A stretch of DNA of 64,000 nt from Patescibacteria group bacterium (GCA_041737355.1 JBGSRW010000007.1:10556-74555); one strand, 5' to 3'. Positions 18,127-19,011 are shown, counted from the stretch's first letter. Notes: a model not told the origin generated them from the letters alone. Translations and numbers: made by a program.

Positions 18127-19011
18127 ATGAAAAAAAAGATTAAAAACCTGGCTATTTTTATATTCGCCCTGCTTTTAAGCATCGCTCTTTGGGGGGCCGG
18201 AAACGTTAACGCCGAAGAAACAAGCCCTTGCTATTGCATTCCCCCGGGTACAAGTTGGCTTCTCGTTGGAGACTGCGCCGAATGCCCGGGAGCTTGCGCC
18301 GCCTCCTTTAACTTAGGGAGCGACAATTTTACGCAAAGAACTTGCGGAGAGGCTGATCCTATAGCTCCCGGAGCAAAAAAATGTTTTTGCCAAATACAAA
18401 TTACCACACCCCCGGCCATGCCCCTTGACGAATGCATCGACGGATGTGCCGGGAACCATTACAGCTACATCTGGACCCCGCCTTCTTCCCCCGTCGAGGA
18501 AGGAGATAGTTGCGCAACTCCGGAAGATTGTTCCGGCGGAGGGACGTGCGGTGAAAACCGATGCTTTTGCAACAGTGAAACCAGCCGATGTGATTTCAAA
18601 TATGAAAACGACGCGGATTGTACCAAGGATGATCAATGCCAATCGGGTTACTGCAAAGAATTCTATTCTTATACCGTGGGCAGCAATGTTAAAAAATGTA
18701 CCGCTGCGGGAGCGCGCCCTCCCCAGCCTTCTGAATCGGAACTTTTTCCGACTTATAACTTGAATTCACCTATTGGGGAAGTGAGCGCCCCGGGGCTTAT
18801 TGGCCGTATTATCAAGTCTGTTATCTCAATTGTCGGCGCTCTGGCTTTGGCCATGTTTATTTACGGCGGATTTACCTGGTTGACCTCGGGAGGCAGCTCT
18901 GATAAAATTAAGAAAGGCCGGGATATTTTAATCTGGGCGACGATCGGCCTTATCGTGATTTTCGCAAGTTATACTTTGGTGGATTTTTTGCTAAGAGCCT
19001 TTGGATTATAA
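18127..19011 (+). CDS. pilin-like protein 4 with Cys-rich N-terminal ectodomain
   Basis: Start moved to the ATG at 18127 (MKKKIKN...). The signal peptide is followed by about 170 aa containing 24 Cys residues in CxC/CFC motifs. The C-terminal module is almost identical to protein 3. Confidence 0.55.
   Translation: MKKKIKNLAIFIFALLLSIALWGAGNVNAEETSPCYCIPPGTSWLLVGDCAECPGACAASFNLGSDNFTQRTCGEADPIAPGAKKCFCQIQITTPPAMPLDECIDGCAGNHYSYIWTPPSSPVEEGDSCATPEDCSGGGTCGENRCFCNSETSRCDFKYENDADCTKDDQCQSGYCKEFYSYTVGSNVKKCTAAGARPPQPSESELFPTYNLNSPIGEVSAPGLIGRIIKSVISIVGALALAMFIYGGFTWLTSGGSSDKIKKGRDILIWATIGLIVIFASYTLVDFLLRAFGL

Follow-up and report, generated by a model that had tools for sequence, protein, structure and literature searches.

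A 64,000-nucleotide stretch of DNA from a Patescibacteria group bacterium, an ultrasmall organism (GCA_041737355.1; JBGSRW010000007.1:10556-74555), here called the window, carries a complete gene for a cysteine-rich VirB2-like pilin precursor at positions 18127..19011 (+ strand, stop codon included). The open reading frame (ORF) is intact, begins with ATG one nucleotide past the stop of the preceding pilin gene, ends with TAA and encodes a precursor of 294 amino acids, as established from the ORF list, the translation and full-length orthologues that are 36-55% identical in the ectodomain. From its N- to its C-terminus, the protein comprises a Sec-type signal peptide (residues 1-29; 18127..18213), an N-terminal cysteine-rich half of the ectodomain (residues 35-107; 18229..18447), a C-terminal cysteine-rich half (residues 129-191; 18511..18699), a Pro/Glu-rich linker with the pre-membrane motif FPTYxxxSPIGEVxxP (residues 192-222; 18700..18792) and a VirB2/TrbC-like pilin module (residues 223-294; 18793..19008), all encoded on the + strand. 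The gene is number four in a tandem array of nine genes with the PF18895 pilin module (16340..21580, + strand; starts at 16340, 16836, 17715, 18127, 19068, 19446, 19859, 20705 and 21164), all of which score above the Pfam threshold and were also covered by a dedicated hidden Markov model (HMM) scan. The designation "paralog 4" given to it in the original prediction, which had been made by a model from the sequence of the window, was therefore correct.

Translation of the gene gave a total of 20 cysteines (residues 35, 37, 50, 53, 57, 73, 86, 88, 103, 107, 129, 135, 141, 146, 148, 155, 165, 171, 176 and 191) and not the 24 that had been counted initially. All of them lie between residues 35 and 191, ten in each half of the ectodomain, and there is none in the signal peptide or in the pilin module. 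The six cysteine motifs quoted by the original prediction are all present and start at residues 35, 50, 86, 103, 146 and 165. Cysteine accounts for 11.7% of residues 30-200, as compared to 0.62% across the 16,287 residues encoded by 40 further genes in the window, and the enrichment (binomial P ~2e-19) is real and far beyond chance.

Residues 223-288 match the Pfam family T4SS_pilin (PF18895; type IV secretion system, T4SS) with 39.3 bits versus a gathering threshold of 26.6 (E = 6.9e-10; profile positions 7-71 of 71), and a weak match to TrbC (PF04956; 14.9 bits versus a cut-off of 27.9, E = 0.03) was also obtained for the 294-residue protein. Hydropathy analysis delimited three hydrophobic segments (3-29, 223-253 and 266-294), and in the C-terminal module AlphaFold2 (AF2) predicted helices at 223-253 and 258-291. 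The two helices of the pilin hairpin, TM1 and TM2, are joined by the basic loop SGGSSDKIKKGRD (the KIKKGR loop). At the N-terminus, MKKKIKNLAIFIFALLLSIALWGAGNVNA is followed by EE, and the arrangement of MKKKIKN, a hydrophobic core and VNA before EE conforms to a Sec type I pattern; AF2 places a helix at residues 2-23, and cleavage is predicted after residue 29. The signal peptide, the two hydrophobic helices and the short basic loop that go with PF18895 pilins are thus all present. Between the helical hairpin and the ectodomain, the linker is modelled with low predicted local distance difference test (pLDDT) values (residues 201-222), and the residues F207, P208, T209, S214, P215, I216 and G217 are invariant in the family alignment.

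Judged by its profile match and its topology, the module belongs to the superfamily of conjugation-type (VirB2-like) pilins and not to the type IV pilins. A type IV pilin identity was considered and rejected: no class III signal is recognizable, since the prepilin-peptidase motif (G-F/M-xxx-E) is absent from the N-terminus, the polymerisation module is the C-terminal hairpin, and the 294-residue protein has no match to a type IV pilin family in Pfam. The word "pilin" in the initial description hence holds for the presence of a pilin-type module, provided that a VirB2/TrbC-like T4SS pilin is meant and not a type IV pilin. Foldseek returned weak matches of the module to 8dfu, the Aeropyrum conjugation pilus (target-normalised TM score 0.54, E = 2.6), and to 8fai, the T-pilus (0.48, E = 4.7), both non-significant; a helical hairpin is a low-information fold. 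By the positive-inside rule and in analogy with VirB2, the segment of some 190 residues that separates the signal peptide from TM1 would be located outside the cytoplasmic membrane. The order of Sec signal, ectodomain, TM1, KIKKGR loop and TM2, seen both by hydropathy and in the AF2 model, agrees with the earlier proposal of an extracellular ectodomain fused to a pilin module. Pilin hairpins of the window also gave sub-threshold NCBIfam matches to the "Mbov_0395 family pilin-like conjugal transfer protein" of the Mycoplasma integrative and conjugative element, the best of them with E = 4.9e-7 and 29 bits versus a cut-off of 40 (e.g. residues 199-271 of the product of 19859..20683); as sequence matches, they hint at a link to pilin-like proteins of the monoderm mating-pair formation (MPF)-FATA systems.

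The N-terminal half of the ectodomain is made up of two CxC ... CxxxC units (C35/C37 ... C53/C57 and C86/C88 ... C103/C107). A model computed for the ectodomain alone had a mean pLDDT of 75 (67-81 in the N-terminal half) and showed, in each unit, the CxC in a strand followed by the CxxxC in a helix (ectodomain numbering: strands 6-9 and 55-63, helices 21-31 and 71-77). An internal duplication of the ectodomain is unsupported by hhalign (unit 1 versus unit 2, E = 0.18), and the repeat is therefore reported as an observation of pattern and predicted secondary structure. The C-terminal half is the confidently modelled (pLDDT 84-93) and conserved part, with its cysteine columns kept in 16-19 of 19 sequences. 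It contains a six-cysteine module at residues 129-155 (C-x5-C-x5-C-x4-C-x-C-x6-C) and a four-cysteine module at residues 165-191 (C-x5-C-x4-C-x14-C); aligned to each other by hhalign, the two gave E = 9e-4 at a probability of 23% over just 16 columns.

Both modules of the C-terminal half resemble small beta-hairpin disulfide modules of the knottin, disulfide-directed-hairpin or EGF-like class, a resemblance that misses all family thresholds. The sole close structural neighbour in the PDB was 1axh (omega-atracotoxin-Hv1a), a local likeness with a target-normalised TM score of 0.79 and a root-mean-square deviation (rmsd) of 1.1 A over 34 columns (Foldseek probability 0.91-0.99; E = 0.38-1.0, non-significant for such a short match). 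When a regular expression was built from the consensus of the disulfide-directed beta-hairpin (CX5-19CX2[G/P]X2CX6-19C), residues 129-155 fitted it strictly and residues 165-191 came close, being one residue shorter behind the Gly. Sub-threshold sequence matches of the C-terminal half were obtained to the EB module, colipase, O-conotoxin and a reelin EGF repeat, the last being the sole PDB sequence match (E = 0.14). The EB match (PF01683) stayed below gathering with 15-16 bits versus 24.3 in 3 of 18 family members, and so did colipase (PF01114; 2 of 18 members, best E = 0.0016), with the window protein not among the latter. For the N-terminal half, a cysteine-stabilised alpha-beta motif as in defensins and scorpion toxins was rejected, as CxC and CxxxC occur twice each and in reverse order; Foldseek found no defensin or toxin fold over this half. 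Ferredoxin-like matches (EF-1beta, an EF-G domain, ACT) were likewise discarded (TM <=0.27, rmsd 7-9 A). Overall, the ectodomain had no significant match in Pfam, PDB-sequence or Foldseek searches and belongs to no curated family, in agreement with the initial statement that no known adhesin fold was detectable.

A single-sequence search with the ectodomain against 5.8 billion protein clusters retrieved four relatives, and a profile search of the same clusters extended the family to 19 members, all of them with PF18895. When 1.84 billion representatives were scanned exhaustively with HMMER, no credible member was gained: of the two extra matches, P0024 (1635 amino acids with repeated DUF11-like units) was discarded as it looks compositional, and P0025 shares only a CxxxDxCxSGxC-x11-C mini-module. 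Among 185,579 species-representative genomes, 3 encode the ectodomain, as do 5 of 241 million metagenome records, so that the family is very rare in these collections. Viral contigs (IMG/VR) contained no relative and no significant fold match was found in BFVD; a phage origin is thus unsupported. Orthologues are named "pilin [Patescibacteria group bacterium]" at NCBI.

In each of the 16 relatives whose ectodomain is complete, this domain has exactly 20 cysteines; the only genes that look miscalled or partial, on short contigs, are P0017 and two truncated ones, P0004 and P0014. Across the family, identity to the window protein is 18-64% in the N-terminal half, the most variable region, and 25-51% in the C-terminal half, whereas the pilin hairpin is 78-85% identical. 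Even the most diverged relatives (18-26% and 25-29% identity in the two halves) keep their 20 cysteines, and where the columns of C50, C107 and C191 are lost in some subgroups, other cysteines appear and the even total is preserved. As the 20 cysteines are kept despite the divergence of the ectodomain, these comparisons support about ten structural disulfides in a fast-evolving surface domain. That the domain is "disulfide-knotted", as initially predicted, is plausible, and the one observation in its favour is a local, non-significant Foldseek match to a cystine-knot toxin. Conservation of the cysteines among orthologues had been proposed as a check, and no orthologue with a complete ectodomain lacks them.

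The description of such an ectodomain as unusual for a pilin is justified in comparison with classical VirB2 and with 111 close relatives of the pilin module, all of <=154 amino acids; these relatives are a sample and not a census, in which typical members have 110-155 amino acids and known long members were not returned. It is less so within the lineage itself, where an ectodomain is present in several members of the array, and in some of these it is cysteine-rich too. Nine pilin genes with the cysteine-rich one in fourth place were also found in OZ246416.1, a single chromosome of 886,192 bp (loci L001 and L005) where the array has the same flanks as in the window (typA, galU and the substrate-binding protein gene upstream, rpoB and rpoC downstream), and in contig JBAZEY010000008.1 (L003). 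Comparing the window with OZ246416.1, array positions 1, 4, 5, 8 and 9 are clear orthologues; positions 2, 3, 6 and 7 have different extra domains in different genomes, namely an Ala-rich helical domain without cysteine, N-terminal domains with 4, 6, 10 or 16 cysteines, or a 6-cysteine C-terminal tail.

In array member 2 (16836..17711, + strand; 291 amino acids), a hairpin nearly the same as those of members 3 and 4 bears an ectodomain of about 190 residues that is rich in Ala and free of cysteine; the counterparts of member 2 have a 10-cysteine head in OZ246416.1 and 4 cysteines in JBAZEY010000008.1. Because the heads of member 2 differ between genomes on a near-identical hairpin, the comparison suggests that heads are swapped on a conserved anchor. 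A second cysteine-rich pilin, identified from its Pfam match and translation, is member 7 (19859..20683, + strand; 274 amino acids, 16 cysteines), the start of which overlaps the stop of member 6 (ATGA). Its head contains CxC(C) ... CxxxC twice and one CxxxxDCxxGxxC motif, and its counterparts are a protein of 163 amino acids without this head and with a 6-cysteine C-terminal tail in OZ246416.1 and one of 162 amino acids with 6 cysteines in JBAZEY010000008.1. Homology between the ectodomains of members 4 and 7 is unsupported (BLASTP E = 0.7), and their likeness is one of pattern only. Within the array, a perfect GC-rich hairpin (AATGGGGCGGGG TTTT CCCGCCCCATT) was noted at 19449..19475, between pilin gene 5, which stops at 19436, and pilin gene 6, whose true ATG is probably at ~19494; it may be an internal terminator, an attenuator or an mRNA-stabilising element that splits genes 1-5 from genes 6-9.

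Upstream of the array lie wzy, a tRNA-Ser gene, typA, galU and the gene for an ABC substrate-binding protein; downstream, two small convergent genes are followed by rpoB and rpoC. As dnaN, dnaA and rnpA (50206..53682, - strand), some 30 kb past the array, are located near the cumulative GC-skew minimum (~50 kb), the replication origin is probably inside the window. The distance of about 30 kb between the array and the dnaA region is consistent with the origin-proximal T4SS genes reported for Patescibacteria, virB4 itself not being in the window. The two small genes (21698..22225 and 22192..22596, both - strand) are situated in a GC-rich stretch with long spurious ORFs on both strands and encode proteins with lipobox-like N-termini (..LTFGCG.. 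and ..VSGCFG..) and Gly/Tyr/Pro-rich regions but no Pfam match; since their size and position are kept in OZ246416.1, this conservation indicates that they are real. A similar acidic lipoprotein-like ORF occurs at 8399..9085. A low-GC island at ~33400..37200 (- strand; 0.34-0.38 versus ~0.46) encodes an Eco47II-type restriction endonuclease, a C-5 cytosine methyltransferase fused to a MerR-type helix-turn-helix and two unannotated ORFs, and is probably a horizontally acquired restriction-modification cassette. Overlapping ORFs of 130-190 amino acids on both strands were found at 55500..57000, a GC-rich region (~0.51) without Rfam match, and the 5' end of a 16S rRNA gene (63708..64000, + strand; Rfam SSU_rRNA_bacteria, 246 bits) is cut by the end of the window. 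The record OZ246416.1 is titled "uncultured Gammaproteobacteria bacterium", yet the small size of the genome (886 kb) and the gene-for-gene synteny of its locus with those of Patescibacteria make a wrong taxonomic label probable.

With a confidence that falls a little short of an even chance, we favour the explanation that the gene at 18127..19011 encodes one of nine alternative VirB2-like subunits, bearing a compact disulfide-stabilised head for recognition of, or adhesion to, a host or partner cell. The comparative evidence for its structural part is solid; the adhesin role we infer. After export by the Sec system and cleavage of the signal peptide, the hairpin would be embedded in the membrane, its basic loop on the inner side and its two termini on the outer side. 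Oxidation of the ectodomain to about ten disulfides would follow, and the system responsible is probably of an MdbA-like/VKOR type, with its genes in another part of the genome; an MdbA-like family of thiol-disulfide oxidoreductases is enriched in bacteria of the candidate phyla radiation (CPR) and adjoins VKOR in 88 of the 750 genomes that have both (PMC6744442). The subunit may either enter a T4SS-type filament, in small numbers or at a tip or base position and with its N-terminus outward, or be kept at the cell surface. In the structures of F- and T-pili, the termini of the subunits are on the outside. The basic loop between the helices faces the lumen in solved conjugative pili (PMC11722321), and because it lines the lumen an N-terminal extension would point outward. 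A VirB2 lattice is unlikely to accommodate a head of about 20 kDa on each of its subunits, and a minor or sparse subunit, or a position at the tip or base, is therefore favoured.

The contrast between a strongly conserved hairpin and a rapidly diverging, cysteine-locked head suggests a role in recognition or adhesion, as does the swapping of heads across positions of the array and across genomes. The head would then act as the module that contacts the surface of a host or partner cell, and the different heads of an array might provide alternative specificities or surface variation. Arrays of 2-11 VirB2 genes occur in 383 Patescibacteria assemblies; an adaptation of host range has been proposed for these arrays, and no PrgB-like adhesin was detected in the phylum (PMC12102498). 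In Southlakia epibionticum, a series of pilins is essential for epibiotic growth (PMC10633639).

Several observations weigh against this explanation. When ORFs of at least 110 amino acids in the 64-kb window were compared with Pfam, no VirB4, VirB6 or coupling protein was detected, T4SS components were also absent from the 20-kb syntenic locus of OZ246416.1, and the machinery that would be sought near a PF18895 pilin (VirB4, VirB6/TrsD/PrgI-like proteins) was thus not encountered within the window. About 40% of the Patescibacteria assemblies with pilins have a pilin away from virB4 as well (PMC12102498). A look-up of an oxidative folding system of the DsbA/DsbB type, suggested along with the original prediction, was negative for the window: Pfam detected no thioredoxin, DsbA, VKOR or DsbB, and the unannotated ORFs examined there had no CxxC motif. 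No adhesin fold was matched and all fold-search matches had E >0.1; the confidence of the model is only moderate for the N-terminal half. Furthermore, a head of about 20 kDa per subunit is probably too bulky for a homopolymeric VirB2-type pilus, filament formation by CPR VirB2-like proteins is putative, and the linkage to a T4SS is presumed for this genome.

The absence of T4SS machinery near the array speaks for the possibility that the hairpin is a mere C-terminal membrane anchor, in which case the array would encode non-polymerising variable surface proteins, a "Sec-secreted array", with the cysteine-rich domain as a surface receptor, adhesin or envelope component independent of any T4SS. 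The array lies among housekeeping genes in all three genomes, a comparable TM7x locus has been termed "Sec secreted array" in work cited by PMC12102498, and bulky heads would be hard to place in a VirB2-type helical lattice, all of which agrees with an anchor. However, an identity of about 80% in the hairpin exceeds the apparent need of a simple anchor, the hairpin scores as T4SS_pilin/TrbC and has a fold likeness, weak and non-significant, to the pilus subunits in 8dfu and 8fai, and the Southlakia pilin series is inside a T4SS cluster and essential (PMC10633639); we regard this possibility as somewhat unlikely. That the linker and the motif before TM1 are invariant could instead reflect a pro-protein, cut near FPTYxxxSPIGEV to release a knottin-like peptide (toxin, inhibitor or signal) or a long leader and to leave a short pilin. 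In classical VirB2, TraA and TrbC pilins, a long leader is removed during processing, and trimming or cyclisation sometimes takes place as well (PMC11722321); the C-terminal half resembles toxin-type cystine knots. But the motif lies in the region of the Pfam pilin model, and the short paralogue 3 contains a related one although it has no head to lose. The ectodomain is already preceded by an ordinary Sec signal peptide, protease genes linked to the array are absent, and a leader of 190 residues with ten disulfides would be costly for a genome of about 0.9 Mb, so that we consider such processing improbable.

The nature of the cysteines themselves could also be questioned, as they might bind metal (zinc or iron-sulfur clusters) instead of forming disulfides: many Patescibacteria inhabit anoxic groundwater, the window encodes no oxidoreductase, and one family member has a weak zinc-ribbon match in Pfam (E = 0.008). 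This is very improbable in our opinion, given a single CxxC spacing (C50/C53) and no conserved histidines, an extracytoplasmic domain, spacings that fit disulfide-hairpin, EGF or knottin patterns, and the even count of 20 that is preserved even where positions shift. An artefact, in which a frameshift or misassembly had joined an unrelated cysteine-rich sequence to a pilin gene, was named at the outset as a condition that would overturn the prediction, and can be regarded as refuted; no support for it was found, the only members that look miscalled or partial being P0017, P0004 and P0014. The same full architecture is present in 16 independent sequences, it recurs in independent assemblies with conserved synteny, and it is collinear in three genome assemblies, one of them a single 886-kb chromosome, and five metagenome contigs.

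Beyond our favoured explanation for the single gene, the VirB2-like arrays of some Patescibacteria might as a whole be a modular display, in which a highly conserved polymerisation and anchor hairpin is combined with interchangeable mini-domains, N-terminal and sometimes C-terminal. Many of these mini-domains would be disulfide-rich and knottin- or hairpin-like and be swapped between positions and genomes, and a T4SS-type filament would then carry its own adhesins. We hold this broader proposal to be rather doubtful for the time being.

In comparison with known systems, the array shares with the VirB2-like arrays of Patescibacteria the PF18895 module, a number of paralogues (nine) within the published range of 2-11, the chromosomal location and the Sec signal, and differs from them by the ectodomain of about 190 residues with 20 cysteines and by not lying beside virB4 in the window. 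Such an ectodomain is not described in PMC12102498, where the term "signal peptide" is absent and the sole mention of "cysteine" concerns VirB1, and our literature search retrieved no account of a cysteine-rich or other folded head on VirB2-like pilins of Patescibacteria. With the classical VirB2, TraA, TrbC and TrhA pilins, the protein has in common the hydrophobic two-helix hairpin, the basic loop and a long N-terminal leader. In contrast, mature classical pilins have about 65-75 residues and no extra domain, and adhesion in those systems is provided by separate proteins (VirB5, TraN, PrgB), whereas the window protein is a folded head fused to a pilin. The host is here a monoderm-like CPR cell, and the T4SS of Patescibacteria is of the MPF-FATA type, normally without pilins (PMC12102498).

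Regarding the head, the cysteine spacing of residues 129-155 and 165-191 is like that of inhibitor cystine knot and disulfide-directed hairpin peptides (1axh), of colipase/Dickkopf and of EGF-like/EB modules, but those are free secreted peptides, whereas the modules described here are part of a bacterial domain with 20 cysteines tethered to a membrane hairpin. Some minor pilins of type IV pili (e.g. of the CofB type) bear an added adhesin or lectin domain, and they likewise combine a conserved polymerisation module with a variable binding domain and occur as several pilin paralogues. They belong, however, to an unrelated superfamily with an N-terminal class III signal and a single helix, and their extra domain is C-terminal, whereas here the head is N-terminal and the anchor is a C-terminal hairpin. 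By its sequence and topology, the protein thus belongs to the known VirB2-like pilins of Patescibacteria, among which it bears a rare 20-cysteine head.

In the one genetically tractable Patescibacterium, epibiotic life depends on the T4SS-like system and its pilin series, the role of which has been called "completely unknown" (PMC11665869) and for which no adhesin has been reported (PMC12102498). With its fused, fast-evolving and disulfide-locked head, the VirB2-type pilin described here offers a concrete candidate for the host-recognition element that is missing, and the arrays may encode alternative specificities. The practical limit is a tiny family confined to uncultured organisms; the ectodomain, with its roughly 190 residues, is small and could serve as a handle for binding assays and for the identification of hosts on which uncultivated CPR lineages live. 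A location of the head on a filament, if real, would widen the range of what a conjugation-type pilin can carry. A modular display, if true, would explain the absence of a PrgB- or VirB5-type adhesin in the phylum and would represent the first conjugation-type pilus with folded heads on its subunits.

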